Shown here one piece after another: positions 2,503-54,858 of a DNA stretch of 64,000 nucleotides. Numbering within the stretch: the first letter of the stretch is position 1; each line of letters starts with the position of its first letter. A program made the translations under genes and the position numbers. The stretch comes from an uncultured Eubacteriales bacterium (GTDB lineage Bacteria; Bacillota; Clostridia; Christensenellales; CAG-138). The stretch spans positions 9,022 to 73,021 of the forward strand of contig CADAGD010000018.1 of the NCBI GenBank assembly GCA_902787375.1. Reading direction: 5' to 3'. The notes below the pieces were generated by a model that was given only the letters and a program-made list of their open reading frames with translations, was not told where the DNA came from and did not search any database.

Positions 2503-5500
2503 TTACCATGCGTAACTGTTGCTGCCGGCAACTACCTGAATACACCTTAAAGCATCCAAGCTTGATATTCTGTTGTTCTTATCAAAGTCCGCCGCAATAA
2601 AGTTTACTATTCCAAGTGTTCTGTTGCCTATGCTCGCCTGCTTTATGAATGTTGCGTCTACTGACGAGAGCTTTGCGTCAAGATTCGCATCACCCTTTAC
2701 AACAACAATTATCTCTACATCGGCATCGTTAACTGTGACCGTATAGCTATGTGTGTTGCCGCTTGTCGTGCATTTAAGAACTGTATATGTGTCGTTTCCT
2801 GTCATGAGAGCAACGGTACAAACCAGATCGCAAGCAACTGTGAATGTCACGTTACCGCTGTACAGCGTATCTGCAGAGATGCTTGTGGTAGCTTTGCCCT
2901 TTGTCTTATCAACAACGATTATATGATAACCATCGCCGCCTCCGGTTGCGGGAATCTCGACCTCCCTCGTCTGGGTCGTAAACATGCTGTTTGCGAACGT
3001 GGCGGTATAGACGCCGGTTCCGGGGGTGGTATCGGTGGGCTGCACGGTTACAGCGTATGTGGCTGTGACTGTTTCCGTAATAACATGGCTCGGATCGTTA
3101 GCGCAAACCGATGTGGCGGTAACGCTGTAGCCGGATGCCGTTTCAGTCCATTCATATGTGGGTGTGCCGTAATCATGTCCAATGGCATTCAGGCGAATCT
3201 TCTTGACGTCCTCATATGTATTGCCGTCAAGCTCGACCGTTGCGATATAGACGATCTCACCGCTTTCCTCGCATACGTTGCCGTCATGCTGAACCGTGAT
3301 GACAGCATCCATTGTCATTGTATGCGAAGCATCCTTCGTGCAGACAAAGTTTGCAGTAGCAGCGGTGTATCCGTCGTCATCGTTGCCGACCCATGTGAAG
3401 GACTCAAACTCCCACTCATGACCGCAGCCGCTTACCGTCTTGGAATCGATCTCTGAAAGAGCAAGATCGCCGTTGCGCTCTATGGTGCTTACAGTTACAA
3501 TGCTGTCATTGCATTTTCTCTCGAAGTGCAGGGCAGCTACAGGACGACCTGCGAATACCGCGTTGTACTTATCGGCAAACGCCAGTCTGATAAGTCCATT
3601 GTCATCCTTATAAGAGCAGTATTCGGCATCGTTGTCAAGACCTGTAAATATCAGCTCATCCGTATCATACTCAATCGTTATAAGTCCGTTGAATACATCC
3701 TGAGTATCGGATATCTGGATGAGGACATCTTCTTCATCCCCATATTCGGGATCGCTGATCTCCGCGGGTGTTATCGAGTTTGCAACAGTCCTGACGTCGG
3801 TTATTCTATTCAATCCGCCGGCAGGGGCCTTCTTACCGGCAATGCCGCTCAGCTCCTTAGCCTGAGCCTTGAATTTTGCCATAGTATCGGCATTCATCAT
3901 TTCATCGCGTGTGATATTCACTCTCTCGCAGTCCAGCTTGCTCGACTGTCCGTTTACCGAGAGGTTCGGAGCAACAGTGCCGTTCACATACAGACCGCAG
4001 ATGGGCCATGTATCCTCACCGAAGCCTCCGGCGTAGAATATCTCGCCATCCGACATTCTGATTATGATAAGCTCGGCATAATTGTTGCCCGCATGTGCCC
4101 AGTAGAGGTAGGTTCCGTCATAGTACAATGACTGGAACAGGAAGTATGTATTGACTCCCGTTTCGAGAACCAGTACGGGATCGGTAAAGTAGCATTCTTC
4201 GCCAAGAACGAGTGTGGTTTCCCATACCCTTCCACGCTCATCAAGGAAGTAATACGAGGATTCCAGCTCGCCAAGCTCCTTCGCGGTAACGCCTACGATG
4301 AACACGTCGCCGTCGCCAAGGCCAAGCAATGCAAGCGGGATACCCGTGTAGTATTCTTCGTTGCCATCATCCTCAGGTATCATGCTGCCCATTGCAAGAT
4401 ATGCGCCGGAGCTGTAAACCATATAATCGGTATAGATTGACGACGCAGGTGCAATATCGGTCATCCATGCATAGTTCTCACCAACATATGACAGGGAATA
4501 ATCGCTCCTGTTTACAGTAAAGAGCGCGGATGTCGCATAATCAAGATCCAAGCTGCCTGCCGAGAGTGTGTTCGCTCCTGACATGAAAGCCGAATGCAGC
4601 GCGGGGCTGTCGATGCCCTCGTTATGGAGCGGGTTCCAGTTGGGGATATTGTTCGTGTTGAATCCCGCAAAGTACGCGCTCTGATTATCCCAGAGTATGG
4701 CGTTCATCTCCTTATTGATCGTTATAACATTTACAGTACATGTCGCCGTCTTGGTGCTGTCGCCGTTAGCCGTCGCCGTTATGACAGCGGTTCCCTCGGA
4801 AACGCCCGTTATACGTCCGATCTGGCTTACAGTAGCGACGGACGGATTGCTGCTCGACCATGTGACCGTCCTATCCGAGGCGGTAAGGGGCATTACCGTT
4901 GCCTCAAGATCGGCTATGCTGCCCTTATAAATCTCAATGAAATCGGGATCTATGGCAACATCGGATACAGCGGTGGGATCCAAGCCGCCTGTAACTATCT
5001 TCTTGTACAGATATATGCTCTGAGCGGATGAGCTTATGGCAAACGTATTATTCTGGGCTACCATATAAGCTCCGTTTCCGGTTCCCAACCTGTCACTTGC
5101 GCCATCCCAGACCCATGTATTATATGACACGGAGGCGGAAATCTGTATGCTCGCGGAAGCCGTGTTATTCGATCTGCGCAGATAAACGCCGTTGTTTGAG
5201 AACGTCCCTCCGGTTGAAGCGCTTGTGTACGTCCATACCGAGTTGTTGTCAACACAGTCTTTATCAATAAAGATCGTTCCATCGTTCTCGATCGTCACAG
5301 CGTCAGAGGCTAAATAATATGAAATATAGACCGTACCCTGTGTTGTATAGCTGAGAGCGTATGCAGCACCCGGCTCACAGCTATTGACGATCAGGTACTC
5401 GCTGCCATCCTCAATTTCATGGGCAAGCTCATACCTTACCGTCTGGTTTTCTCCGCCGATATTGTCATTTACCTTGACCGCAACAGCGCTGTCATTTGCC

Positions 5501-8500
5501 GCATAGTCGCCTGCATATACCGCGACATAGCCGTTGGCGTTGGCGATCGCGTCGGCGATATTCAGCCTTACGGTATAGCTGTCGGTTCCGGGAATTGCCT
5601 CGGCATACTTGACGTCGCCGTTAAGGCTCATAACAGCTACATAAGCTATGTTCACGTTATCGGAAACCGTGACATTCAGGAAATTGCCGCTGAGACTTGT
5701 ACTCTCAATAACGGGCGGAGTGTCGTCTATCGTGAAGTCATATCCGATATACGCGCCCTTGCCAAGCACATTGCTTGTGAGTACATCTACGCTCGCATCA
5801 ACGTCGAGCTTGCCTGCGTAGTAGGTTGTTATATCGTCCCAATACTTCATCGCGTAGTATTCGGGAATAGCATAATAACCGAACCTGAACGCACTTCCCT
5901 CAGGAATCCCGTACCCCGACAGATTATAGTATAAATCCAACGCTCTTGTAGCCCTGTTCTGCCACAGCCCGTTGTTTATATTGTAGTAAAGACCGTCAAC
6001 ATTATAATCGTCAATGTTTCCGTCAAACAGGCTCAGAACATTGCCGCCGACCTCATCAATCGTACTTAACGCGAACAGAGTTGTTCCGGCGGAACGCAGA
6101 ACATTGTAATAAACGCTTCCGAGTGTATCCGTAGACCTCAACGCAATGCGATCCTCAGGGAACTCATCCTCAATCGCGTAGGGATTGCCGACCACTCGAT
6201 ATGTCTTACCGTTCCTCACATATGTGACATAGTTTGTATCCGCGAATCCCGAATACGGCGTCTTATCAGTTCCGTAAAGGGTATCCACATATGAGGTATT
6301 GTCGAACATAGAAGCATCCGTCCAGTTGCCATAGAAGCCGAGTATGGGGATGCTGTGCAGGTGGCTGTAGTCGGTACTCTTGATGTCGCTTGTTATGCAC
6401 TCAACATATGTATAACCCTCAATGTACGCGCCGTTTTCGAACTCGTTAAGCACAGCTCTCTGCTCGTCCGTAAGATTGATGTTTACGGTAACGTCCACCG
6501 AGCCGCCTGCCGGAACAAAGAATCCGTCGGCACTTGCTTCGGGAGTCCAGTCGATGAGCAGGTATGCGTCATATGTTGTAACGCTTCCGTCGCCGTCAAG
6601 ATCGGCAGCGACAGTATTTGTAACAGCCTTGGCGCGGTTGCCGGCAAGGTAGTCAAGTATCGCCTGAGCGTCGTCGTTATCGGTATCGCCGTCATTATCG
6701 ACGTCATGGCTCTGAATGCTTGAAGCTATGCCGTCCCAGATATAGGATACACCGCCGCCGGGGAGCATCTGTGTTTCATGGGTTACGAACTCGCCGTTTA
6801 TTCCCTGTGTGAACAGATCGGTCAGCAGCGAGAACTCAAGATCCACCGTGGACGTGTTGTAAACAGTAAAGTTATAGCTGTAAACACCGGTTTTTGCGGG
6901 ATCGTCGCCAAGCTCGACCTTTATCTTGCCGTCGGCGGCAGCACCCGTAAGGGCTGTGAGGTTATCATCCTCTGCACTCATCATTATGACAGTCGCGGCG
7001 TTTATGGCCCTGCTTACGTCTACAAGTCCCGCGCCCTGCTGCAGTACCGAAGCATAGCTGCCGTTGGGCTTCATGACGGTTGCCGTGGACATGAGCAAGC
7101 TCTGTATTATCTCACGGGTAGTATAGTTGTTGCTCAAATCGACATTCTTTGCCGACATGGGATTCTCTCTGAGATACTGGGCTACAACTGCGGAAAGACC
7201 CGCGATATGCGGAGCCGCCATGGATGTTCCGCTCATTATCTCATACTTATCCGTGCCGCCCGAAATTCTTCCGTTGGGAAGCACATGAGTACCGGCAACT
7301 GAGTAGATCGAACCGCCGGGAGCGGTTATTTCCGGCTTCATCAGCAGGGAGCCGGGTGCGCCCCATGAGCTGAAGTCCGAAACATTGGCTTCCTCACGGG
7401 TTATAAGGCTTCCGTGAACGGGTATATTCGTTACCTGAACGATGCCCGTATAGTATGTATAGTCGCCGACGGTATGAACCGCTGAGTTGGATTTGAGTGC
7501 TTCAGCGTTCGCAAGGGAAATGGTTACCATCGGGAATGTTCCCGTATAATCGTCAAGAAGCATTGATATTGTGCCGGGAATATTATTCGCGACAACAAGA
7601 GCTCTCGGATTATAGTCTATAAGGTTATTGCCCTTTTCCGAGAACGAGATGCTTCCGCGGTTTACGATAACCACTTTTCCGGTAAGGTCAAACTCCTCGT
7701 TTATCGCGCTGTAGTTTTCCGGCTCGCCGACCGCGTCAATATAGACGAAGTCATACCTTCCGGCAATAGTTACCATTTCGGGATTGCTGTACAGATCGCC
7801 CTCGAAGCTCTCGGTGCGCTCGACATAGAATACCTTCTGGTTGCCGTTGAAGATAAGCGGCGTACCCGTTTCACCGATATTGTCGGCGGAGGCTACCGTC
7901 ATGCCGTTGATGTAGGTTCCCGGACTTCCGCCGGTGTGGAAGCTGACGTCGTCCTTATACATCGGAGTTACCGCCGCGTCGTCAAAAGCACCCGCATTAC
8001 CTGCGGAAATGGAAACCACCATTCCCTCATTGCCGACCTTATCAACGAGGCTGTTGAAAATCTCCTGGTACTGATACGAGTATGTATAACCGGGAGCATA
8101 GGAGCCGAATGAGAGGTTTGCCGCGTCGCAGTCGAGCATTATGGCGTCCTCAAGGGCTGCCATATAGTCCGAATCATACGCGCCGCCCCTGACGCCGAAC
8201 ACCTTCATTATCAAGAGCTGAGCGTCGGGAGCCATGCCGACCGAATGAACAAGATCAATGGCGTCAACGTATCCCGCCGCCCCGTTTTCGACAAAACGGT
8301 TGGCCGCAGCAATACCGGCTACATGGGAACCATGCTCGCCATTCAGATCGTTCAAATGGGATATATCATTATTTCTGTCAACATAGTTATAACCATATGG
8401 TATTTTGGAATTGATATATGTTCCGCTTCCGTTGAGATCAAGATTGCTCGGAACGCTTGTCATAAGGTCTATGGCTTTTCCGGTCTGCGCAATGGCATAA

Positions 8501-9183
8501 TCGAAAGCACCGGAGTCAAAGGACTGATGGTTCACATCAATACCGGTATCTATCATGGCGATACGGCTTCCCGCGCCGGTGTAGCCGAGTCCGCTGTCCC
8601 ACGCGAGAACCGCGCCGACCATGTCGGTTGAGGTATTGGCTGTGTTGGGATGTGAAACCTCCTCCTTGGGAGCTTCATAATAGTTCTCAAGCTCGACCAT
8701 TTTTACGCCGGCTGTCTGGCGAATCTTCTCAATATCGCCGTAGCGTACTTCCGCCGATATGGCGTTGACCGCCAACGTAAGGTTCCACTCAACCTTTATG
8801 TCGGATTTGATTGCCTTTTCAATACTCTCCGTAATCCGCTTCTGCTCATTCTTTATGGATTTACGGTAGTTTGCCGCCTCGGTATTTGTTCCTATTCCCT
8901 TGGCGGAATACCCGGCGTCAATGGCTGCCGGAGATTCGAGGAATATGGATACTCGAACCATCTCATCAGGCGAAAACTCAGCCTTTTCCTCGGCTGAGCC
9001 TGCTTTCTCACCCTTGTCCTCACCCATAATGGGAACATTAAGGGTACTCGGATCGATTTTTACCGTTTCCGGCTTCCTGCTGCCGTCGTCGCGGACAACT
9101 GACGCGATTGCCGTCGAGGATATGGACGCAAGCATCAGAACCGCAAGCACGAATGCCAGAAGACTTCTAAGTGTCCTGTTCAT
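2503..9183 (-). CDS. Giant secreted S8 (subtilisin-like) serine protease with PA-domain insertion, Big_2-like and cohesin-like modules and a C-terminal dockerin-like module
   Basis: 2,226-aa ORF with a signal peptide (MNRTLRSLLAFVLAVLMLASISSTAIA). The subtilase triad is visible in MIDTGID (Asp codon 8548-8550), GEHGSHVAG (His 8323-8325) and SGTSMAAPHIAG (Ser 7222-7224). A PA domain is indicated by GKVVIVNRGSISFSEKG. The C-terminus carries a duplicated Ca-binding segment (GDANLDAKLSSVDA...DFDKNNRISSLDA). A sigma-A promoter and AGGAGG lie upstream. Confidence 0.9.
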   Translation of the reverse strand: MNRTLRSLLAFVLAVLMLASISSTAIASVVRDDGSRKPETVKIDPSTLNVPIMGEDKGEKAGSAEEKAEFSPDEMVRVSIFLESPAAIDAGYSAKGIGTNTEAANYRKSIKNEQKRITESIEKAIKSDIKVEWNLTLAVNAISAEVRYGDIEKIRQTAGVKMVELENYYEAPKEEVSHPNTANTSTDMVGAVLAWDSGLGYTGAGSRIAMIDTGIDVNHQSFDSGAFDYAIAQTGKAIDLMTSVPSNLDLNGSGTYINSKIPYGYNYVDRNNDISHLNDLNGEHGSHVAGIAAANRFVENGAAGYVDAIDLVHSVGMAPDAQLLIMKVFGVRGGAYDSDYMAALEDAIMLDCDAANLSFGSYAPGYTYSYQYQEIFNSLVDKVGNEGMVVSISAGNAGAFDDAAVTPMYKDDVSFHTGGSPGTYINGMTVASADNIGETGTPLIFNGNQKVFYVERTESFEGDLYSNPEMVTIAGRYDFVYIDAVGEPENYSAINEEFDLTGKVVIVNRGSISFSEKGNNLIDYNPRALVVANNIPGTISMLLDDYTGTFPMVTISLANAEALKSNSAVHTVGDYTYYTGIVQVTNIPVHGSLITREEANVSDFSSWGAPGSLLMKPEITAPGGSIYSVAGTHVLPNGRISGGTDKYEIMSGTSMAAPHIAGLSAVVAQYLRENPMSAKNVDLSNNYTTREIIQSLLMSTATVMKPNGSYASVLQQGAGLVDVSRAINAATVIMMSAEDDNLTALTGAAADGKIKVELGDDPAKTGVYSYNFTVYNTSTVDLEFSLLTDLFTQGINGEFVTHETQMLPGGGVSYIWDGIASSIQSHDVDNDGDTDNDDAQAILDYLAGNRAKAVTNTVAADLDGDGSVTTYDAYLLIDWTPEASADGFFVPAGGSVDVTVNINLTDEQRAVLNEFENGAYIEGYTYVECITSDIKSTDYSHLHSIPILGFYGNWTDASMFDNTSYVDTLYGTDKTPYSGFADTNYVTYVRNGKTYRVVGNPYAIEDEFPEDRIALRSTDTLGSVYYNVLRSAGTTLFALSTIDEVGGNVLSLFDGNIDDYNVDGLYYNINNGLWQNRATRALDLYYNLSGYGIPEGSAFRFGYYAIPEYYAMKYWDDITTYYAGKLDVDASVDVLTSNVLGKGAYIGYDFTIDDTPPVIESTSLSGNFLNVTVSDNVNIAYVAVMSLNGDVKYAEAIPGTDSYTVRLNIADAIANANGYVAVYAGDYAANDSAVAVKVNDNIGGENQTVRYELAHEIEDGSEYLIVNSCEPGAAYALSYTTQGTVYISYYLASDAVTIENDGTIFIDKDCVDNNSVWTYTSASTGGTFSNNGVYLRRSNNTASASIQISASVSYNTWVWDGASDRLGTGNGAYMVAQNNTFAISSSAQSIYLYKKIVTGGLDPTAVSDVAIDPDFIEIYKGSIADLEATVMPLTASDRTVTWSSSNPSVATVSQIGRITGVSEGTAVITATANGDSTKTATCTVNVITINKEMNAILWDNQSAYFAGFNTNNIPNWNPLHNEGIDSPALHSAFMSGANTLSAGSLDLDYATSALFTVNRSDYSLSYVGENYAWMTDIAPASSIYTDYMVYSSGAYLAMGSMIPEDDGNEEYYTGIPLALLGLGDGDVFIVGVTAKELGELESSYYFLDERGRVWETTLVLGEECYFTDPVLVLETGVNTYFLFQSLYYDGTYLYWAHAGNNYAELIIIRMSDGEIFYAGGFGEDTWPICGLYVNGTVAPNLSVNGQSSKLDCERVNITRDEMMNADTMAKFKAQAKELSGIAGKKAPAGGLNRITDVRTVANSITPAEISDPEYGDEEDVLIQISDTQDVFNGLITIEYDTDELIFTGLDNDAEYCSYKDDNGLIRLAFADKYNAVFAGRPVAALHFERKCNDSIVTVSTIERNGDLALSEIDSKTVSGCGHEWEFESFTWVGNDDDGYTAATANFVCTKDASHTMTMDAVITVQHDGNVCEESGEIVYIATVELDGNTYEDVKKIRLNAIGHDYGTPTYEWTETASGYSVTATSVCANDPSHVITETVTATYAVTVQPTDTTPGTGVYTATFANSMFTTQTREVEIPATGGGDGYHIIVVDKTKGKATTSISADTLYSGNVTFTVACDLVCTVALMTGNDTYTVLKCTTSGNTHSYTVTVNDADVEIIVVVKGDANLDAKLSSVDATFIKQASIGNRTLGIVNFIAADFDKNNRISSLDALRCIQVVAGSNSYAW

Positions 9184-16159: not shown

Positions 16160-16283
16160 AGATAATAGGGTATTTTGAGGATAGTGGTGCTATGCTCCGC
16201 TTCATTACGCCGAGCATGAGCCTTTGCCTTCAAATACGCCATGAGCAATATAACCCATGTCCTTTGGAAAGGAAGTAAATGAA

Positions 16284-17096
16284 ATGATAAAAAAAATCAT
16301 TGGGCTTTCGCTTTCATTCGTTATGCTTTGCTGTGCCACCGGCACATATGCGTCAGCGGCGAATGATGCAGCGTCAAGGCAATCCGAAATTGTTTTTACC
16401 ATTGATCCGCCTGCGGAGGAAACGGATGCTCCACCAACTCATGCGCCGACGGATACTCCGGCTCCGACAGCAACCCCAACTGCCGCTCCGACAGCAACTC
16501 CGACCGTTGCTCCGACCGCGACGCCGACCGCAAAGCCCACGGCAACACCGACTGCCAAGCCTACAGCAGTACCCACACAGGCTCCTACGGCCGCTCCGGT
16601 TATTACGCCAAGACCGACGTCGGTTCCGACAACTCAGTCTCCTTATGTAACAACCGCTCCGGTCATAACCCCAACGCAGCAGCCCAGCTACATTGCATAT
16701 ACTCTCTGGGATTATGCGGCGGATACCATCCAGAAGGTCGTTCGTGATACACCGTTTGAAATAGTCCTCGTCGAAGGCGTTTCGGATTATCTGACCTTCT
16801 CCAACTTCTACGGCAATATACCCGACACAGTCGAGTTCATCAACAGCATAGAGACCGATGGGCTTTGTATGCTCAAGGGCATGGTAAATGCCAACAGCTC
16901 CTATGAGCTTGGTCTTGAATTTACACTAAAGGGCGGACAAAAGCTCATGCTGAATTTCAGCATATCGGCAGTTGACGAGATCGCCGTCGAGCCGACCCTC
17001 AGCCCATACGCATTTCCTGAGGCGCATAAGCTCATACCGTTCGGCGGCAATCCGTCAGCCATGACAGCGCTGCCGCATAGGAAGGAGGATGCATGA
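16284..17096 (+). CDS. Secreted protein with Pro/Thr-rich linker
   Basis: Signal peptide MIKKIIGLSLSFVMLCCATGTYASA, then a roughly 45-aa (A/T)PT-repeat linker. The stop overlaps the next start (ATGA). Confidence 0.7.
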   Translation: MIKKIIGLSLSFVMLCCATGTYASAANDAASRQSEIVFTIDPPAEETDAPPTHAPTDTPAPTATPTAAPTATPTVAPTATPTAKPTATPTAKPTAVPTQAPTAAPVITPRPTSVPTTQSPYVTTAPVITPTQQPSYIAYTLWDYAADTIQKVVRDTPFEIVLVEGVSDYLTFSNFYGNIPDTVEFINSIETDGLCMLKGMVNANSSYELGLEFTLKGGQKLMLNFSISAVDEIAVEPTLSPYAFPEAHKLIPFGGNPSAMTALPHRKEDA

Positions 17097-21022: not shown

Positions 21023-21512
21023 AATATAGAAAACAAAATAACGCGGCAGTCGGGAAGATGCGGCAACATCCTCCCGACCTGCATATGTGAACCACCCACA
21101 TACACAACGGGTCTATTGCCCGTACACGCATTCATATTATACGGAAATTTCTCCTCATTTTCAAGCCCCTTTTGGGTGCAGCGGAGGCTTTCCGATGTGC
21201 GCGAGGCTGTGTATGTAAGGTACATGGCTGTTTTTGTTTTCCGAAAGTCCTTGGGGGCGGGAAAACCTGCCCCAAGGAACCGCTTTCGGGCTGCGCGCTT
21301 CGGAAGGCTTTTCTGTTACCCTTTAACACAATATATTATCGGCACTCCAAACCCATCAATACTCAAAAAGGGGGAACTATATTGAAACAATATTCAATCA
21401 ATAATCTTAGAAAACTGTTATTAATATAATAGGCATTAGATAGATCAGTCATTTGGAGTGCAGAAGCTGAACGGGATTAACAGCAATTTGCTTTTTGGAA
21501 CGTTGCCCCCTG

Positions 21513-21540
21513 AAAACCACATAGTGGTTTTGCTTTATAG
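21513..21540 (+). terminator. Terminator/attenuator-like hairpin about 45 nt upstream of the mosaic gene
   Basis: AAAACCAC-ata-GTGGTTTT followed by GCTTTAT. Confidence 0.4.
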
Positions 21541-21586
21541 TTCACAAATTACACCAAATTAAGATGCTGTAAAGGAGGACAATACA

Positions 21587-24500
21587 ATGAAAAAAACACT
21601 TATTAAACTAATGTCATTGATACTTGTAGTATCGTTTTTGACAATTTCAGTACCTATCGGAGCTTCCGATATTGTTAGTACTAACTGTGAAAAAACTCAA
21701 GCAACAAAGACGCAATCTCACTACAATAACTTTTCTAGTAATTATACTTTAACCGGAAATGGTGCAACAGACATGGTTGCTATAGCACTTGCTCAGGAAG
21801 GAAAGACTGGTAATCAGCTTGGATATACTGAACAATGGTGCGCTGATTTTGTTTGTGACTGTGCTTGTCTTGCCGGACAAAGTGCGGCTATTCCATTTTA
21901 TGGTGCAGTTGCTGGATTAAGAAGTAGATTAATAAATGCGGGGGGAACTTACGTTACAGTTGGAACTGCACGTCCTGGCGATCTCTGTATTATTGATTGG
22001 AACGGAACCGGAAATAACAATCATATAGAAATAGTCTACTCGGCAAATGGCTCGACAATATCAACAATAGGTGGAAACTCTGGTTCTGCATCAAGTTTAT
22101 ATTCACGAAGCGTTAAAAAGCATAACCCATTAAGCAACTCAGTAATAACATGTATCATTCGACCCAACTATTCAGGTTCCTCAAATCCCGTTAATCCACA
22201 ACCAAATCCCAACCCTCAGCCAAGTGGAGATCAGCTTCCTGTAGGTTGTGTCGATAATGTATCAGGAAGTCCTGGGACAATCACGGTAGCAGGATGGGCA
22301 TTCGATCCTGATTGTTCAAGCATGAGTATAAAAATCCATGTATATTTTGATGGAACACATGTATATACACTTGATACAAATCATGATCGTTCAGATGTTC
22401 GTGCCGCTTTTTCAATAGATGGATTTCACGGCTTTGAAGGTAACCTTGCCACATCAAAAACCGGTTCTGTAAGCGTCAAAATTTATGCTATTGGCGTTGA
22501 TTGTAACGGACATGACCAACAGGGCAATACACTGCTGTATGAGGGTAGTGTTAGCGTAAGCGCAAGTCCTGAGCCCCCATCTAACTACTATCATCTTGAC
22601 GTAAATGGTGTTCTTGACGGAAAACTATCTCCTAATCTTGGTTCATATGGCACCGTAGATATATATATAAACGGTGAGCTTGTAGCTGCAGATGCAACAG
22701 ATTTTTACCAAACTTATCCTAGTGGAACAATCTATGAGGTGAAGCAGCCTGATCCAAATTACGGATACTCCTTTTCCGGTATCGCAAACGGAAGCTTGAA
22801 AGGAACGATTAATGGCGAAACAGAAGTTCGGCTGAAGTTTGATTATAATAATCTCAGTGCAATCATTGAAACGCCTGAAGCCCACTATTACAACGGTCAT
22901 ACCTATTATCTGTTTACAACACCCTGCACATGGTATTATGCAAATGAATACTGCGTAGCCAACGGGGGACATCTTGTAACTATAACATCTGCCGGAGAAA
23001 ATGATTTTGTCAGAAATCTATTTTCAGGCATGCAAAGAATTTGGATAGGCGGAACCAACTGCAATCTGGACTCGAACTATGAATGGGTTACACGTGAATC
23101 CTTCTCGTTTACTGATTGGAGGGGCAGTCAGCCCGATAACTCTTTCAATTCAGGCGATTACGAACACTACATAGAGTATTATGCCGAATCGATGGAAGGT
23201 CATTGGAATGATGCCGTTGGCTTTATTAAGTCGCCTTTTGTCATGGAAATGGACGGCATTCCGGTTGGTTTAACCGAAGAAGTCAGCGGAGCTGATGGCA
23301 GAGTATATCTCAAAGGTTGGGCATACGATCCCGATTGCCCTTCTGCAAGCGTAAAAATGCATATTTATGTCAACGGCGATTATGCTGGTACTCTTATCGC
23401 AAATAAGCCAAGATCCGATGTAAATACTGCGCATGGAATTACCGGCAATCACGGTTTTGAAGGTTGGGTAAGAACCTCACGTACCGGTAGTCAGCCTATA
23501 CAGATTTTTATCATTGATCTAAATGCTAATGGTCAACCCGGTGACCAGATACCACCTCGTACATTGGAGGGTATTCATTTCACAACCATCAGTAACACAA
23601 CAAATCAATACTATTATGTTCGTTTTTTTGGAAAGGACAAGAGTGAAATACTTGATCATCAACTCGTATTAAAGGGTTCCTCTGCTACTCCTCCGCAAAC
23701 ACCGAGAATTGAAGGATTTGTTTTTTCGCATTGGAGTGAAAGCTACACAAACATAACAGCAGATAAAGAAATAGTTGCGATATACGAGCAAGAACCTACT
23801 CCAACGGAATGTCCTACGGCAACTCCTACTGTGGCTCCTACCGCAACTCCTACTGTGGCTCCTACTGTAGCTCCTACACCTACTCCAACAACTGCTCCTA
23901 CAGCAACCCCAAATCCGATTCCGGAGAACGAACCCAAAATCGTAGTCAGTAGTCCAACTGCAGTAACAGGCAATACAGTTACCGCAACCGTAAGTATCGA
24001 AAACAACCCCGGCTTTATTAACATGAAGCTTCACCTGAGATATGATCCTCTCCTTACTCTTGTTTCGGTTGAAAATACTGGACTAATTCCCGGATTTGAG
24101 GGTTCTTCTGATATAGCCAACCCATACCTGCTTGTCTGGAATAACGATACTACTGCGACAAGTAATATTATGTCGAACGGAACTATCGCTGTGCTGACAT
24201 TCGCTGTACCTGATGGTACCGAAGCGGGGGATTATGCAATTACCATAGATTATAATGTTATCGATGATGATATACATGATTATAATCTTGACACGGTTGA
24301 GTTCTTCATAGTCAACGGTCATATTCATGTCATCGATGTACTTCTTGGTGATGTCAATTCTGATGGCAGAGTTACCACAATAGACAGAGCAATCCTTGCG
24401 CGTTATCTTGCAGGCTGGGCAAACTATCCTTCTTCTATGATAAACTTTGTTGCTGCCGACGTTAATCTTGATGGCAAGGTCACAACAAAAGATCGTGCAA

Positions 24501-25198
24501 TACTTGCTCGACATCTTGCCTGTTGGACAGGGTATGAAGAACTTCCGCATCTGGACAAAGGTATTCATGTTCAAAGAGCCCTGATACAAGAAGGAGAGCC
24601 GACAATTATCGTCGGAACAGTTGAAGGACATCCCGGCGACATTGTTACTGTGCCTGTTAGTATTCAAGATAATCCCGGTTTCATTGATATGAAGCTCAAA
24701 CTCAGCTTCGATCCTGCACTAACACTTATTGAGGTACAAGATACAGGTATTCTTCCGGGCAAGGAACACTCTAACACTCTCGGCAATCCTTATATTCTTG
24801 TTTGGAACAACGATATCACGGCAAACGATGATCTCTATGTGGATGGAGTAATAGTCAATCTGGTATTCCAGATTTCCGAAAATGCTGAAGCAGGTGAGTA
24901 TTACGTCAACATCTCCTATGACAATAGTCAAGAAGAGATACTTGATTATAATCTCAATACTGTAGAATTCGCTGTTGTAAACGGCACAGTTGCCACTAAT
25001 ATAGGTATCCTTGGTGATGCCAACGGCGACGGCGAATTTACATTCAATGATGTAACAGTTCTATACTTCTACCTGCTCAACGGCAATGTGACAGAGATTA
25101 CGCCTAAGAGTTTGACAAATGCCGATCTGAATCACGATGGAGTTGTGAGTGTATCAGACATAACCCTTATGTATAACCGTCTTCTTGGCGGAAAATAA
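21587..25198 (+). CDS. Secreted mosaic protein with CHAP amidase, two GW/RSDV beta-repeats, C-type lectin domain, InlB-B-like repeat, PT linker, then cohesin, dockerin, cohesin, dockerin
   Basis: 1,203 aa with AAGGAGG upstream and a signal peptide. The CHAP domain shows Cys in EQWCADFV (codon 21839-21841) and His in NNHIEIV. The CTLD reads CVANGGHLVTITS...WIGG...QPD (23129-23137)...WND (23204-23212). The two cohesins read NPGFINMKL.../NPGFIDMKL.... The two dockerins are duplicated EF-hand pairs (DVNSDGRVTTIDRA...DVNLDGKVTTKDRA; DANGDGEFTFNDV...DLNHDGVVSVSDI). Confidence 0.9.
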   Translation: MKKTLIKLMSLILVVSFLTISVPIGASDIVSTNCEKTQATKTQSHYNNFSSNYTLTGNGATDMVAIALAQEGKTGNQLGYTEQWCADFVCDCACLAGQSAAIPFYGAVAGLRSRLINAGGTYVTVGTARPGDLCIIDWNGTGNNNHIEIVYSANGSTISTIGGNSGSASSLYSRSVKKHNPLSNSVITCIIRPNYSGSSNPVNPQPNPNPQPSGDQLPVGCVDNVSGSPGTITVAGWAFDPDCSSMSIKIHVYFDGTHVYTLDTNHDRSDVRAAFSIDGFHGFEGNLATSKTGSVSVKIYAIGVDCNGHDQQGNTLLYEGSVSVSASPEPPSNYYHLDVNGVLDGKLSPNLGSYGTVDIYINGELVAADATDFYQTYPSGTIYEVKQPDPNYGYSFSGIANGSLKGTINGETEVRLKFDYNNLSAIIETPEAHYYNGHTYYLFTTPCTWYYANEYCVANGGHLVTITSAGENDFVRNLFSGMQRIWIGGTNCNLDSNYEWVTRESFSFTDWRGSQPDNSFNSGDYEHYIEYYAESMEGHWNDAVGFIKSPFVMEMDGIPVGLTEEVSGADGRVYLKGWAYDPDCPSASVKMHIYVNGDYAGTLIANKPRSDVNTAHGITGNHGFEGWVRTSRTGSQPIQIFIIDLNANGQPGDQIPPRTLEGIHFTTISNTTNQYYYVRFFGKDKSEILDHQLVLKGSSATPPQTPRIEGFVFSHWSESYTNITADKEIVAIYEQEPTPTECPTATPTVAPTATPTVAPTVAPTPTPTTAPTATPNPIPENEPKIVVSSPTAVTGNTVTATVSIENNPGFINMKLHLRYDPLLTLVSVENTGLIPGFEGSSDIANPYLLVWNNDTTATSNIMSNGTIAVLTFAVPDGTEAGDYAITIDYNVIDDDIHDYNLDTVEFFIVNGHIHVIDVLLGDVNSDGRVTTIDRAILARYLAGWANYPSSMINFVAADVNLDGKVTTKDRAILARHLACWTGYEELPHLDKGIHVQRALIQEGEPTIIVGTVEGHPGDIVTVPVSIQDNPGFIDMKLKLSFDPALTLIEVQDTGILPGKEHSNTLGNPYILVWNNDITANDDLYVDGVIVNLVFQISENAEAGEYYVNISYDNSQEEILDYNLNTVEFAVVNGTVATNIGILGDANGDGEFTFNDVTVLYFYLLNGNVTEITPKSLTNADLNHDGVVSVSDITLMYNRLLGGK

Positions 25199-25234
25199 TT
25201 CTTAGCATCAAATAAACGTCGTTTATCCGTGTTC

Positions 25235-25270
25235 TGCCTCCCTTTTTTCACAGGGGAGGCATTTTGTTTG
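25235..25270 (+). terminator. Intrinsic terminator after the mosaic gene
   Basis: TGCCTCCC...GGGAGGCA stem followed by TTTTGTTTG. Confidence 0.7.
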
Positions 25271-25300
25271 TCTGCCTTCCTGCCTGATTTGCAACATAAA

Positions 25301-32594: not shown

Positions 32595-32696
32595 GCAACA
32601 GTATCTTGAAATGCGCTGTAACAAAACTTTTCTGCCGATACACAGACCTCTTTGTCAGCACTTTTCACACTCAGAAAAAGCGAAAGGTGGAATCCC

Positions 32697-33884
32697 ATGC
32701 TCCCAGCAGATATGCCTTGCAATCAAAGATTTGTGCTTGCTCTTGTTCGAGAAAGCTTCGGCATTCCTTCAGATTTTCCCGAACCTGACAACATTGCTGA
32801 AATAGCCGAAATGATAGTTTGGAACGATATACTACTTACTGTATACCCCACGCTAAAACTCCTCGTGAAAAAGCATTCCGGTAACGGCTATGATGCAGCC
32901 TCGATGCTTATCAAGAGGTTGCATTCCTCTTTACTTAGTGCAATACGAGTAGCGACAATTCAAGAATACGAAGGCAAAAAAGTTATTGAAAGCCTTAGTC
33001 GTGCGGGTCTAGATTGTATTGCCTTAAAAGGCTGGGAGTTGCGTAATTATTATCCTGAGAGACTTATGCGTCAAATGTGTGATTTGGACATTCTTATCAG
33101 GCCATTTAACCGCATTGATGTCAATGCAGTTATGAGCAGTTTAGGATTTGCCAAATGTGGAGGGGATTCATGGAAGCATCATACTTTTAAAAAAGATGTA
33201 TTGTATGTTGAAATTCACAAACGTTTGACAGAAAATGTCAGTAATCAAAAGAAGTGGGAATGTACCATTTGGGAAAAAGCACTTGAACAACAACGGCATA
33301 TATTCAAGATGTGCAATGATGATTTTTATATATTTCATTTCATTCATTTATATAATGATTTTAAAGTAGGCAATCTGATTATACGGAGGATAGTAGATAC
33401 ATGGCTACTAAAAAAAACTGTTAACAATTGGGATTATGTTAATAGAATACTCAACGATCTTGGATTACTGCTTTTTCATGAAAGAATGATTAATCTTGCA
33501 GCAGCTTGTATGGGAGATTCTGACTTTGACTCCAACTCTAAGTATTTGCTAAACTACTCTTTAAAGGATTCTGTCTCAAGAAAAAGCAAACTATATAAGG
33601 CAGTACGAATCCAATCCATGTCCGGCGGAAAGAGCATGTGGCTTGGCAAGCTCAAATCGTTTACCGCAGCCATATTTCTGCCCTTTCACAGGATGAAAGC
33701 ACATTATCCTCTTTTGAAGAAAGTGCCGATATTGCTTCCGTATTTCTGGATAAAAAGGATTTTCTCGCTTTTATCGGGGAACACACAAAAATACCGTCAA
33801 ATGCTCGACTACAGCGATATAGATAAATCCGATTATGAAACGGCGAAGCGTTTTCTCAGGGCGGGCGGCATAGAAAACAAGTAA
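32697..33884 (+). CDS. Uncharacterised nucleotidyltransferase family protein (NTP_transf_5-like)
   Basis: Motif ALKGWELRNYYPERLMRQMCDLDILIRP...H.F.K....VEIHKRL. AAAGGTGG lies upstream of ATG 32697. The central part (about 33100-33600) is visibly A/T-richer. Confidence 0.65.
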   Translation: MLPADMPCNQRFVLALVRESFGIPSDFPEPDNIAEIAEMIVWNDILLTVYPTLKLLVKKHSGNGYDAASMLIKRLHSSLLSAIRVATIQEYEGKKVIESLSRAGLDCIALKGWELRNYYPERLMRQMCDLDILIRPFNRIDVNAVMSSLGFAKCGGDSWKHHTFKKDVLYVEIHKRLTENVSNQKKWECTIWEKALEQQRHIFKMCNDDFYIFHFIHLYNDFKVGNLIIRRIVDTWLLKKTVNNWDYVNRILNDLGLLLFHERMINLAAACMGDSDFDSNSKYLLNYSLKDSVSRKSKLYKAVRIQSMSGGKSMWLGKLKSFTAAIFLPFHRMKAHYPLLKKVPILLPYFWIKRIFSLLSGNTQKYRQMLDYSDIDKSDYETAKRFLRAGGIENK

Positions 33885-52791: not shown

Positions 52792-54858
52792 CTATTCAGG
52801 TAATATGCTGCCCATTCCGGGAACGGACGGCTTTTGCGAATTGCCCGCGCTGAATCTTACAGGCAGCGAATAGACGCCTGTGAACTCATACGGTTCTCCG
52901 AAAGCGATAATATTTTCGCTCATAAAGCCGGCATGACCTTCATCGGTCGTTATGTAATGCCATTTGCCTATGCTCAGCCACGACGTCAGCTTTGTTCCCC
53001 TTGGCAGCGTCGTTATAAGCGTGCTTGAAACCGCCCACGGCTGTGAGCGCAGACTGCCGCTGCTTGCCGAAACCTCTCCGTCCATCAATGTAAACACTCC
53101 GTCAACCGGCGACGGAAACGCCGCTATTTCGGAATTAAGGAGCGTTATATAGCCCTTATTCCCATTCCATACCGCCTTGTACCAACCGTTATCGGTGACG
53201 CCGAGAATCTCAAAATATTCATTCTGCCTTACTATTCCGAGAACGTCCGAGTATATGTCCGGCTCGCCTCTCAGCACCGTTTTCTCCGCGGTGCATACGC
53301 CAAACGCCAATACCTTCCCGTCATCGGGAGCGTTTGTCGGCGTGGGTGTCGGCGTCGGTGTCGATGTCGGCGTGGGTGTCGGCTTGGGCGTTGGCGTCGG
53401 CGTGGGCGTCGGCGTCGGTGTAGCTGTAGGCGTCGGCTGCGCTGTTTCCGGGTTCGCCTCCGTTATCGAAACAAGTCGGCAATTCGGATAATAGAACGCA
53501 AGTATTTCGCTGTAGCTCTGATTGTAAATCCGCGCCCTGTATATGGCACCAAGCTGCGAGAGCCCTATTCCGTGTCCGTTTCTGGAGCTTATGAGGGTAT
53601 ATCCGTTCGACTTGGTCTTCCCCCAGTAGAGCTTGAGATTCTTTGTAAAACATCCCTTGGAGGACGAATAGCTGTCCCCGCTTCCGTCAAGGTCTGAAAG
53701 CTGATATGTTTTCAGATCCTTTATGTCGCAGTTTATGGAAACGGTCTTATTGGCTGTCGCCTTGCCCTTTGTGTACTCGACCACAGCCCCAATATGCAGC
53801 TTGCGCATATTCCTCGTCGTGCCGGAAACGGGATCGTAGGCATAGAGTGAGTTTATCGAAACCACCCTCTTGGGCGCAATGCCGTAACTGTCACGCGCCT
53901 TGCAGAGTATGAAATCCCTGAATCGGCTGCTGTCGCCTGTGCCGCCAAATGTTACCTCGACTATCTCCTTATGGCTGGCGGTTGTATCATTGTTGAACTC
54001 TATATCATCCACCGCCACGCCGTATGCCGGATCGAACACCGAGGAGCCGTACAGATGGGACGGGAGCGAGGTTTCACCTCCGTTTGTGTTGCTGTACTGC
54101 GCCGGCAGGAGCTTATCTCCGTCAAAAACAAGTGCCTTGCCCACGACGGCTAAACAGGCGGGCATTGTAGAAAGCCTGCTCTCGCTGTAACCGCGGTATA
54201 GCTGGTTCATGCTCACCGCGCTGTCATCCAGATCGTATTCGTTGCTCGGATCAATATAGTACATTCCGAATGTCTTTGCCGCAACAGCCTGCGCCTTTAA
54301 TGCCTCTTCCGGTGCGCTTGTTCCTATCTCATAGCTGACGATTCCGTATATGTAATAAGCAAGCGGAACCGTGTTTATCATTTGCACCTTGCCTGAGTTT
54401 GCCCCGAACCTGAAATTGCCAAGATAGCTCTTGCCGAGCGTTATGCTGTTCGCGCTGTAGGTCAATGTCGCATAGCCCGCCGTATAGCTGACCGCCGTCC
54501 TTGTAAGCTCAAGCGTGCTGCCTGAAGTCAAAAGCGCGTTTGTTGAGCGATTGTAAACCTTGACATTGCTGCCCGAAACGGAAACCTTTATCTTATAAGG
54601 GGAGCTTGCGGTTCCGCTCAGCACTCCCGAAACATTCGTAAGACGGTATCCGCCGATAAGGTCAAGATTTATGTATGAGGTGTTGCCCGTCGTGATAAGT
54701 ACTCGGATGGTGCTGAAATCCATCGTTATGGGCGGCTGTTTTCGTTCGGGGCCGTCGGCCTCGCGTGCCATTACTATTGCCGAAAAGCATGGCAGCATAA
54801 TAACGGCAAGCATGAATGCCGCCGCTTTGGTCAAAGCAGACCGTATTTTTTTATACAT
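52792..54858 (-). CDS. SpoIID/LytB domain protein with PT linker and C-terminal SH3-like repeats
   Basis: Signal peptide, SpoIID motifs AQAVAAKTF and NGHGIGLSQLGA, a (PT)n linker at about 53322-53440, then two SH3b-like segments. Confidence 0.8.
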   Translation of the reverse strand: MYKKIRSALTKAAAFMLAVIMLPCFSAIVMAREADGPERKQPPITMDFSTIRVLITTGNTSYINLDLIGGYRLTNVSGVLSGTASSPYKIKVSVSGSNVKVYNRSTNALLTSGSTLELTRTAVSYTAGYATLTYSANSITLGKSYLGNFRFGANSGKVQMINTVPLAYYIYGIVSYEIGTSAPEEALKAQAVAAKTFGMYYIDPSNEYDLDDSAVSMNQLYRGYSESRLSTMPACLAVVGKALVFDGDKLLPAQYSNTNGGETSLPSHLYGSSVFDPAYGVAVDDIEFNNDTTASHKEIVEVTFGGTGDSSRFRDFILCKARDSYGIAPKRVVSINSLYAYDPVSGTTRNMRKLHIGAVVEYTKGKATANKTVSINCDIKDLKTYQLSDLDGSGDSYSSSKGCFTKNLKLYWGKTKSNGYTLISSRNGHGIGLSQLGAIYRARIYNQSYSEILAFYYPNCRLVSITEANPETAQPTPTATPTPTPTPTPTPKPTPTPTSTPTPTPTPTNAPDDGKVLAFGVCTAEKTVLRGEPDIYSDVLGIVRQNEYFEILGVTDNGWYKAVWNGNKGYITLLNSEIAAFPSPVDGVFTLMDGEVSASSGSLRSQPWAVSSTLITTLPRGTKLTSWLSIGKWHYITTDEGHAGFMSENIIAFGEPYEFTGVYSLPVRFSAGNSQKPSVPGMGSILPE

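Follow-up and report, generated by a model that had tools for sequence, protein, structure and literature searches.

A CHAP-type head, a C-type lectin domain and a doubled cohesin-dockerin tail on one protein of an uncultured gut clostridium: a candidate lectin-targeted peptidoglycan hydrolase

The gene described here lies in a 64,000-nucleotide stretch of contig CADAGD010000018.1 from an uncultured Eubacteriales bacterium (GTDB lineage CAG-138). This whole stretch is called the window, and coordinates are those of the window unless another locus is named. The gene is a single uninterrupted open reading frame (ORF) on the + strand and encodes 1203 amino acids (aa), with no internal stop over 3.6 kb. 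Its product is arranged as a signal peptide, a CHAP domain, an immunoglobulin (Ig)-like repeat, a CnaB-like domain, a C-type lectin domain (CTLD), a second Ig-like repeat, a weak Flg_new segment, a linker rich in Pro and Thr (PT linker) and a cohesin-dockerin-cohesin-dockerin (Coh-Doc-Coh-Doc) tail. A TetR regulator gene is located upstream and three M42 peptidase genes downstream, and no phage or mobile-element genes are found in the flanks. The 704-bp spacer upstream of the gene was examined for regulatory RNA and none was found. Pfam was run on the whole protein and again on isolated segments, with cut-offs of 26 bits for CHAP (PF05257, curated), 22.6 for Lectin_C (PF00059), 24.1 for Cohesin (PF00963), 22.9 for Dockerin_1 (PF00404) and 27 for Flg_new (PF09479). 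The features of the locus, including two domains built on AlphaFold2 (AF2) models, are as follows.

21571..21578 (+): Shine-Dalgarno sequence AAAGGAGG, read from the sequence
21587..25198 (+): complete ORF (ORF call), 1203 aa plus stop codon
21587..21664 (+): signal peptide by sequence features, aa 1-26, MKKTLIKLMSLILVVSFLTISVPIGA, with SD following the cleavage site; KK in the n-region, then a hydrophobic core and small residues leading up to the cleavage site
21719..22171 (+): CHAP-type papain-fold amidase/peptidase domain, aa 45-195 (Pfam core 80-164), PF05257, 30.9 bits
22172..22219 (+): Pro/Asn-rich linker, aa 196-211, from the translation
22220..22561 (+): RepA copy 1, Ig-like beta-sandwich without Pfam model, aa 212-325, from AF2 model and alignment
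22562..22876 (+): spacer, CnaB/pilin-like beta-sandwich without Pfam model, aa 326-430, from AF2 model
22877..23254 (+): CTLD, aa 431-556, PF00059, 48.0 bits
23255..23581 (+): RepA copy 2, aa 557-665, 42% identical to copy 1
23582..23794 (+): weak Flg_new/InlB-B-like repeat, aa 666-736, PF09479, 16.3 bits
23795..23923 (+): PT linker, aa 737-779, from the translation; repeat number varies between strains
23924..24334 (+): cohesin 1, aa 780-916, PF00963, 43.4 bits
24335..24556 (+): dockerin 1, aa 917-990, PF00404, 56.4 bits, no linker to cohesin 1
24557..24994 (+): connector of about 13 aa and cohesin 2, aa 991-1136, PF00963, 49.6 bits
24995..25195 (+): dockerin 2, aa 1137-1203, PF00404, 41.5 bits, divergent and asymmetric, no linker to cohesin 2
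25235..25271 (+): intrinsic-terminator-like hairpin (25235-25261) and T-run, from the sequence
21300..25300 (no strand): low-GC tract, GC 0.34-0.47 by windowed GC, flanked by host-like DNA of 0.55-0.60

The ATG of the ORF is positioned 8 nt downstream of the Shine-Dalgarno sequence. In the copy of the gene annotated in the NCBI metagenome-assembled genome (MAG; P0135, 1141 aa) translation begins at Met63, and the signal peptide is lost (window 21587-21773, aa 1-62); because a strong Shine-Dalgarno sequence precedes the upstream ATG, the latter is the better start. The N-terminus of the 1203-aa protein appears to be a typical Sec signal peptide, and this segment is also kept in a strain allele with a swapped head (see below). 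It is very improbable that the gene is an assembly chimera, or a recent transfer that is neither expressed nor functional in its host. The strongly foreign codon usage, the MAG annotation from Met63 and a relative (P0003) without the terminal dockerin would suit such an origin, but the identical 1203-aa protein is present with the same neighbours on three independent metagenome contigs, the gene is carried by samples ERZ27280420, ERZ1029115, and ERR3275107, its 90%-identity cluster has nine members, near-identical intact alleles occur in further samples, the Shine-Dalgarno sequence and the terminator are both in place, and an ORF without internal stops retains all motif residues intact.

The head is recognized by Pfam as a CHAP domain when the isolated segment is scanned (30.9 bits), and a precomputed CHAP match on exactly this protein carries the mark "weak." W84-C85, H146, G163-N164, and Q70 are invariant across 43 aligned homologous CHAP heads, among them the Cys of EQWCADFV (C85) and the His of NNHIEIV (H146) to which the original prediction had pointed. 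The alignment shows the Cys85/His146/Asn164 residue set for activity in this predicted head. The segment matches three PHROG endolysin families (21357, 21825, and 9589, with E-values of 3e-13, 2.4e-9, and 6e-7), and homologues that bear a CHAP domain also include the wall-binding modules PG_binding_1, PG_binding_3, SH3_3, and SLH. Both the endolysin similarity and these modules suggest that the head cleaves peptidoglycan. The protein shares with CHAP hydrolases and phage endolysins the Cys/His(/Asn) signature and the combination of a catalytic head with a wall-targeting module. However, those enzymes are targeted through SH3b, LysM, or choline-binding modules, whereas the candidate would be targeted through a CTLD and Ig-like repeats and, unlike them, contains cohesin-dockerin assembly modules.

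The CTLD (48.0 bits) has its closest solved sequences among animal CTLDs, namely mannose receptor 2, DEC-205, and langerin (E 1.8e-17 to 1e-13). It includes Q515-P516-D517, E526, and W540-N541-D542, and all five canonical ligands of Ca2+ site 2 are present. In C-type lectins QPD...E...WND makes up the whole primary Ca2+/sugar site of the galactose type, and QPD is a motif suited to sugars of the mucin type. In a set of 73 homologous bacterial CTLDs, EPN is found in 44, QPD in 21, and WND in 59, and the site is fully canonical in 52. The classical division into mannose-type and galactose-type sites (EPN/QPD) is therefore kept in the bacterial domains, which argues for real sugar binding by the CTLDs of this family. 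The ligand of the present one would be a glycopolymer bearing galactose or N-acetylgalactosamine (Gal/GalNAc). With mannose receptor 2, langerin, and the Gal-type QPD lectins of animals the domain shares the fold, as judged by sequence, and the complete QPD/E/WND form of Ca2+ site 2; it differs in being bacterial, in having largely lost the disulfides, and in the dedicated CnaB-like spacer that is always placed in front of it.

Both cohesins (43.4 and 49.6 bits) and both dockerins (56.4 and 41.5 bits) lie above the Pfam cut-offs as isolated segments. The cohesins are 49% identical to each other, and the profile of their family aligns over positions 4-135 of 135 with the type-I cohesins 4ums, 3ul4, 3kcp, and 1aoh (E 2e-12 to 3e-9). 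Each dockerin contains two D-x-N/D-x-D/N-G loops. The two Ca2+-loop/helix segments are identical at 18 of 24 positions in dockerin 1, whose closest PDB sequence is a type-I dockerin of a Clostridium thermocellum GH9 enzyme, and at 10 of 24 in dockerin 2; the internal symmetry of dockerin 1 is compatible with a dual binding mode. At both cohesin-to-dockerin junctions (...NGHIHVIDVLLGDVNSDG and ...NGTVATNIGILGDANGDG) the domains follow each other without a linker, so that in our judgement fold-back binding inside one dyad is geometrically unlikely, which would favour intermolecular chaining. When typed by similarity, which does not inform on pairing, only 7 of 116 dockerins of relatives are nearer to dockerin 2, nearly all being dockerin 1-like, and the second cohesins are mostly Coh2-like. 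PDB entry 8zvk ("AaBglC") was considered as a solved Coh-Doc dyad and rejected, since a repeated search matched only its PT linker and dockerin; no paper on this entry was found in the literature.

The 64-kb window encodes no other cohesin and only one other dockerin protein, an S8 subtilase, which makes the latter the sole candidate ligand for the two cohesins within the window. This 2226-aa Peptidase_S8 protein (2503-9183, - strand), about 12 kb upstream, combines a PA insert and a Big_2 domain with a pair of dockerins, of which the first is internal (about aa 826-877) and the second C-terminal (about aa 2163-2222). The GC content at third codon positions (GC3) of its gene is 0.573 and host-like.

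Taken as a whole, the protein may be a peptidoglycan hydrolase that is targeted by its lectin and both anchored and networked by contacts between cohesins and dockerins, a reading to which we give a probability of roughly 0.55. The CHAP domain would act as a papain-fold Cys/His amidase or endopeptidase that cuts the stem peptides of peptidoglycan. A stalk of Ig-like and CnaB-like beta-sandwiches would give it reach and would carry one Ca2+-dependent QPD lectin, which would guide the enzyme towards a glycopolymer that contains Gal/GalNAc; the likeliest such target is a polysaccharide of a bacterial cell wall. The dockerins of the tail could plug into cohesins on the surface of the producer or on sister copies, and the cohesins could accept dockerins of sister molecules or of other secreted proteins, for instance the S8 subtilase. 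The outcome would be chains or networks analogous to those of Ruminococcus bromii Amy4. Such an assembly would most likely serve to lyse neighbouring cells, or to trim their walls, at the surface of the producer, either as antagonism or as nutrient scavenging, rather than housekeeping.

The composition of the gene sets it apart from its surroundings. It had been described as richer in A/T than its neighbours, and its GC3 of 0.318 is indeed the lowest of the 42 genes in the window (mean 0.576, standard deviation 0.067, z = -3.9), with GC1 and GC2 ordinary. Low GC3 is found in every domain (0.19 to 0.44), and the downstream edge of the low-GC tract (about 21300-25300) is sharp. The codons of the PT linker had been contrasted with CCG/ACG/GCC-dominated linkers in two host-like genes. 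This contrast is upheld for the gene itself, where 21 of 36 P/T/A codons end in T, and for 52792-54858, where 19 of 35 end in G, but not for the linker of 16257-17096, which is mixed. The last of these genes (+ strand) encodes a 279-aa protein that has a PT linker and gave zero Pfam matches.

The syntenic locus of the nearest related species recovered (L017-L021), whose M42 proteins are 67-77% identical to those of the window, includes the hyp261-TetR genes and the M42 block. Neither a homologue of the gene nor any ORF for a cohesin or dockerin lies within about 8 kb there. Compared with the window, the M42 block has the opposite orientation, and the gene sits exactly at the rearrangement junction. 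In a further strain (L010) the flanks are 99% and 96.7% identical, and the segment corresponding to window 21664-22551 (CHAP, linker, and RepA copy 1; aa 27-322) is swapped with sharp breakpoints for an unrelated 612-bp module (L010 2365-2976), which encodes a head of about 204 aa (...VGCLVTS...NNGHYVAVDN...). The resulting allele, P0002, has no CHAP domain and keeps the lectin and the tail. The number of repeats in the PT linker distinguishes strain variants of 1195, 1199, and 1203 aa. Thus the GC3 outlier, the absence from the locus of related species, the swapped head and the linker variants provide good support for a lineage-specific horizontal acquisition, as originally proposed, followed by cassette exchange, and the locus is a clean example of cassette-level allelic exchange at one chromosomal site.

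These observations bear on whether the protein could instead be a housekeeping autolysin, attached to the wall of the producer itself or to its surface scaffoldins and trimming its own peptidoglycan during daughter-cell separation or the turnover of the wall, with a lectin that reads the secondary cell-wall polysaccharide of the same cell. CHAP enzymes commonly serve cell separation, homologues with SLH or PG_binding_1 modules would bind their own wall, and the dockerins would hold the protein on the producer's surface. However, the gene is a compositional island that is missing from the syntenic locus of related species, and one would not expect an essential division enzyme to have its head replaced by an unrelated module, as in L010. 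The window also already encodes a wall enzyme of host composition, the SpoIID and SH3_3 protein with a long PT linker and host-like codon usage at 52792-54858 (- strand). The autolysin is therefore judged unlikely, with an appreciable chance of being right. Because the gene is accessory and recently gained and its warhead is swapped between strains, we lean towards an action on neighbouring cells over housekeeping autolysis.

Another reading is that the protein is primarily an adhesin or adaptor scaffoldin. Here, the lectin would attach the cell to Gal/GalNAc glycans of host mucin or of plants, the tail would recruit dockerin proteins, and the CHAP domain would be vestigial or a protease that acts on something other than peptidoglycan. 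The same Coh-Doc(-Coh) tails are found on LRR/BspA-like and Big_2 proteins of adhesin type that include no hydrolase, P0002 keeps lectin and tail without a CHAP domain, and the QPD motif suits mucin-type sugars. On the other hand, the catalytic Cys/His/Asn are strictly conserved and the CHAP domain is endolysin-like. The replacement heads also weakly resemble papain-fold peptidases. The swapped head of P0002 gave zero Pfam or PDB matches of its own, but the same type of head is N-terminal in P0174, P0217, and P0220, the last of which weakly matches Peptidase_C39 (E 0.011), and P0003, whose head is of another kind, gives a weak match to CHAP in that region (E 8e-4). This resemblance suggests that an enzymatic head is selected for, and the adhesin is regarded as rather doubtful.

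Several points count against the lectin-targeted hydrolase as well. When the whole protein is scanned, CHAP scores 25.4 bits and so falls just short of its cut-off of 26, and the segment has one solved-structure match only, a weak one to a C. difficile cell-wall hydrolase (E 0.005). Most canonical disulfide cysteines are missing from the CTLD: only C456 (C1) remains, with Met in place of C4 and no Cys after WND. However, such loss is common among bacterial homologues and does not preclude folding as a CTLD. The 64 kb show no anchoring scaffoldin in the form of a cohesin protein with a sortase signal or SLH repeats, and no result presented here tells antagonistic from autolytic use. Finally, relatives in other hosts are also low in GC3 (P0014, 0.343 against 0.52-0.54 in its neighbours; P0003, 0.652 against mostly 0.69-0.87; P0004, 0.584 against mostly 0.63-0.75, with two of six neighbours lower at 0.375 and 0.379), and part of the compositional signal may therefore be a property of the gene class. 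From these values the family looks like an exchangeable accessory class.

The remaining beta-rich domains form the predicted stalk. The repeat motif that had been noted twice (GWAFDPD...RSDV...HGFEG) corresponds to two real copies of a domain of about 110 aa, called RepA here, which are 42% identical. The "beta-rich spacer" of the original prediction is a discrete domain, modelled by AF2 as a beta-sandwich with a mean confidence (pLDDT) of 93.2. The Pfam scan gave zero matches for both RepA copies and for the spacer. The AF2 model of RepA, made from a 24-sequence alignment, has a pLDDT of 95.2 and shows an Ig-like/E-set beta-sandwich. Its Foldseek neighbours in the PDB are generic (the C-terminal domain of sulfite oxidase and the N-terminal domain of chitinase A, TM-score <=0.57), and those of the spacer are pilin, SdrD, and Cna B domains of Gram-positive surface proteins, again weakly similar (TM-score <=0.57). 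An identification at the level of the fold was thus rejected for both domains, since the models are confident yet the likeness is only generic, and no function is transferable. RepA was also considered as a divergent GBS_Bsp-like repeat (PF08481), because this family co-occurs in many homologues, although elsewhere in those proteins. The idea was rejected, as neither the repeats of the protein nor 10 homologous repeat regions match any Pfam model. RepA and the pre-CTLD spacer stand as two newly defined, widespread, and confidently folding domains without a Pfam model. The spacer adjoins a downstream CTLD in 14 of 23 homologous copies, from which it follows that spacer and CTLD travel as a single cassette.

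The consensus of RepA is GWAFDPD...R.DVN...HGF...YAINVGGG. The domain is present in Firmicutes and in Actinobacteria (S53 peptidases of Curtobacterium), in a RICIN-domain protein on a Ruminococcus albus 7 plasmid (NC_014824.1 62448-62789) and, as five tandem copies, in a pectate-lyase protein of the type IX secretion system (T9SS); P0042 is among the RepA proteins. The motif of the spacer is LDVNGxLDG...YGTVDVYINGxxVADDVxDY...GTxYEIxDI. It is also found in proteins that bear an N_methyl (type IV pilin-like) signal (P0078/P0080), and P0060 contains three tandem copies.

Pfam bears out the CHAP, Lectin_C, two Cohesin, and two Dockerin_1 domains that had been read from the translation, but the Flg_new/InlB-B-like call, at 16.3 bits, stays below its cut-off of 27. 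By BLAST this segment is 32-34% identical to repeats of the relative P0004, which score 150 bits for Flg_new.

The distribution of the architecture was followed at several depths. A word-indexed search returned 87 relatives of mosaic Pfam content, with modules that include CHAP, Flg_new, Lectin_C, Dockerin_1, Cohesin, PG_binding_1, RicinB, SLH, SH3_3, LRR_5, and GBS_Bsp-like. In a full HMMER scan of 1.84 billion representatives, 27,966 proteins passed E <=1e-3 and 1,035 passed E <=1e-30, the majority with single domains in common. The names given to the relatives are uninformative ("lectin-like protein" and "GBS Bsp-like repeat-containing protein" only). For a local census, hidden Markov models (HMMs) were built from the family of the protein and run on 252 retrieved relatives, with the following counts.

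CHAP of this type with CTLD, cohesin, and dockerin: 8/252, one of them the protein's own 90% cluster
Coh-Doc-Coh: 41/252
Coh-Doc-Coh-Doc: 11/252
Spacer-CTLD cassette: 27/252

P0004 and P0158 display the same domain order, including the Coh-Doc-Coh-Doc end, and both additionally contain PG_binding_1. The spacing of the tail is fixed in the relatives, with a Coh-to-Doc linker of 0 and a median Doc-to-Coh gap of 17 aa, and single Coh-Doc dyads end LRR/BspA-like, Big_2, Flg_new, and SLH proteins. P0015 consists of CHAP and Coh-Doc-Coh followed by three SLH repeats, which indicates that relatives are wall-anchored. Since CHAP, CTLD, cohesin, and dockerin recur together in 8 of the 252, the protein is, by its predicted domains, one member of a recurrent and uncharacterized shuffled family in gut Clostridia. 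Such a family could have arisen from four shuffled cassettes: a cysteine-peptidase head, Ig-like repeats, the spacer with its CTLD, and Coh-Doc(-Coh). Phage records hold no relative of the gene except for matches to the CTLD alone in Flavobacterium phages. A phage or plasmid origin was accordingly rejected, the plasmid matches covering RepA or the CTLD only.

Cohesin-dockerin assembly is best known from cellulosomes and amylosomes. In the glycosidase/toxin complexes of Clostridium perfringens and in other non-cellulosomal systems, cohesin-dockerin pairs assemble secreted enzymes unrelated to cellulose degradation. The enzyme classes concerned are GH84 and sialidases, and the cohesin and the dockerin are usually on separate proteins. 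The original prediction held that no characterized protein with the present combination of domains was known. Full-text literature searches indeed returned no paper on CHAP or C-type lectin domains joined to cohesin-dockerin modules, but the architecture recurs, as described above, and close functional precedents exist in a dockerin-borne NlpC/P60 peptidase (PMC3573020) and in Amy4 (PMC4611034). The protein is thus built from known kinds, that is, papain-fold peptidases borne on dockerins and enzymes with a cohesin and a dockerin of their own.

The first of these precedents is RflaF_05439 of Ruminococcus flavefaciens FD-1 (NlpC/P60_1-NlpC/P60_2-XDoc, PDB 4EZY), the function of which is unproven and the dockerin of which binds the cohesin of the sortase-anchored surface protein ScaE, according to unpublished results of its authors (PMC3573020). 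Both proteins come from ruminococcal-type Clostridia and have a secreted papain-fold (NlpC/P60-superfamily) cysteine peptidase head and a C-terminal dockerin; both are passengers of a cohesin-dockerin system other than carbohydrate-active enzymes (CAZymes), with a function assigned from the fold only. By contrast, RflaF_05439 displays two tandem heads instead of one, its dockerin forms an R. flavefaciens-type X-Doc dyad, its sequence does not reveal the catalytic module as CHAP, and it has no cohesins, lectin, or Ig-like stalk. The dockerin inventory of R. flavefaciens also includes peptidases, transglutaminase-like proteins, a VanY protease, LRR proteins, and serpins (PMC2930009).

Amy4 of R. 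bromii likewise combines a catalytic module, a cohesin, and a dockerin on one polypeptide. [quoted passage not shown] This binding, measured for Amy4 and not for the protein described here, allows multimerization, the formation of mini-complexes, and anchoring through a sortase-linked scaffoldin. However, Amy4 is a GH13 amylase with a single cohesin and a single dockerin, as opposed to two linker-less dyads. Cohesin and dockerin also share one polypeptide in the ScaC-type monovalent adaptor scaffoldins (Coh and Doc) of R. flavefaciens and R. albus (PMC4081043), which bridge or switch specificities within the surface complex and possibly form fibre-like extensions (2026 survey, PMC13463774). 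These adaptors are small and lack an enzyme or lectin, whereas in the present protein a doubled Coh-Doc is the tail of a large enzyme, with cohesins that are type I-like by profile.

A bolder extension, in our view a long shot, is that the linker-less Coh-Doc(-Coh) cassette is a horizontally mobile, self-polymerizing "surface-matrix" tail, which would daisy-chain proteases, BspA-like adhesins, and cell-wall hydrolases with lectins into an extracellular assembly that is not cellulolytic. In it, the CHAP-CTLD protein would be a contact-dependent, glycan-addressed antibacterial weapon, with warhead and address swapped as in polymorphic toxins. Should the preferred reading of a lectin-targeted, networked hydrolase be true, uncultured gut Clostridia would mount peptidoglycan hydrolases with animal-like C-type lectins by means of cohesin-dockerin contacts, and its confirmation would widen the role of these modules from polysaccharide digestion to cell-wall remodelling or interbacterial antagonism. 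The lectin "address," the exchangeable hydrolase "warhead," and the self-assembling tail could also serve as parts for engineered lysins.

Some relatives show further variation at the C-terminal end. P0003 ends after its second cohesin, and the next ORF (L014 11121-11288) encodes 46 aa and is not dockerin-like. In P0008, P0009, P0164, P0185, P0190, P0230, P0242, P0271, and P0274 a beta-rich C-terminal domain of about 90-100 aa (for example ...VFCGVYNNSGKMIAVRSVQV...FDYAKAFVVDSDFRPLC) replaces the second dockerin of these Coh-Doc-Coh proteins. The nearest isolate with a related gene is Ruminococcus sp. zg-924, in which two adjacent genes (L004 10001-12874 and 13062-15221) end in nearly identical Coh-Doc cassettes. 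From their translations the first reads as CHAP-...-RicinB-like-Cys-rich repeats and the second as LRR-Big_2. The twin cassettes suggest a recent duplication or conversion of the cassette and a shared assembly partner. Behind the P0158 gene (L098 4795-7685) come a Coh-Flg_new-Coh-Flg_new-Doc gene and a relaxase fragment, a hint that in this lineage the gene may be linked to a mobile element. Within the window, a second composition outlier, the gene of an uncharacterized nucleotidyltransferase (NTP_transf_5; 32652-33884, + strand; GC3 0.380, z = -2.9), is probably another foreign gene.

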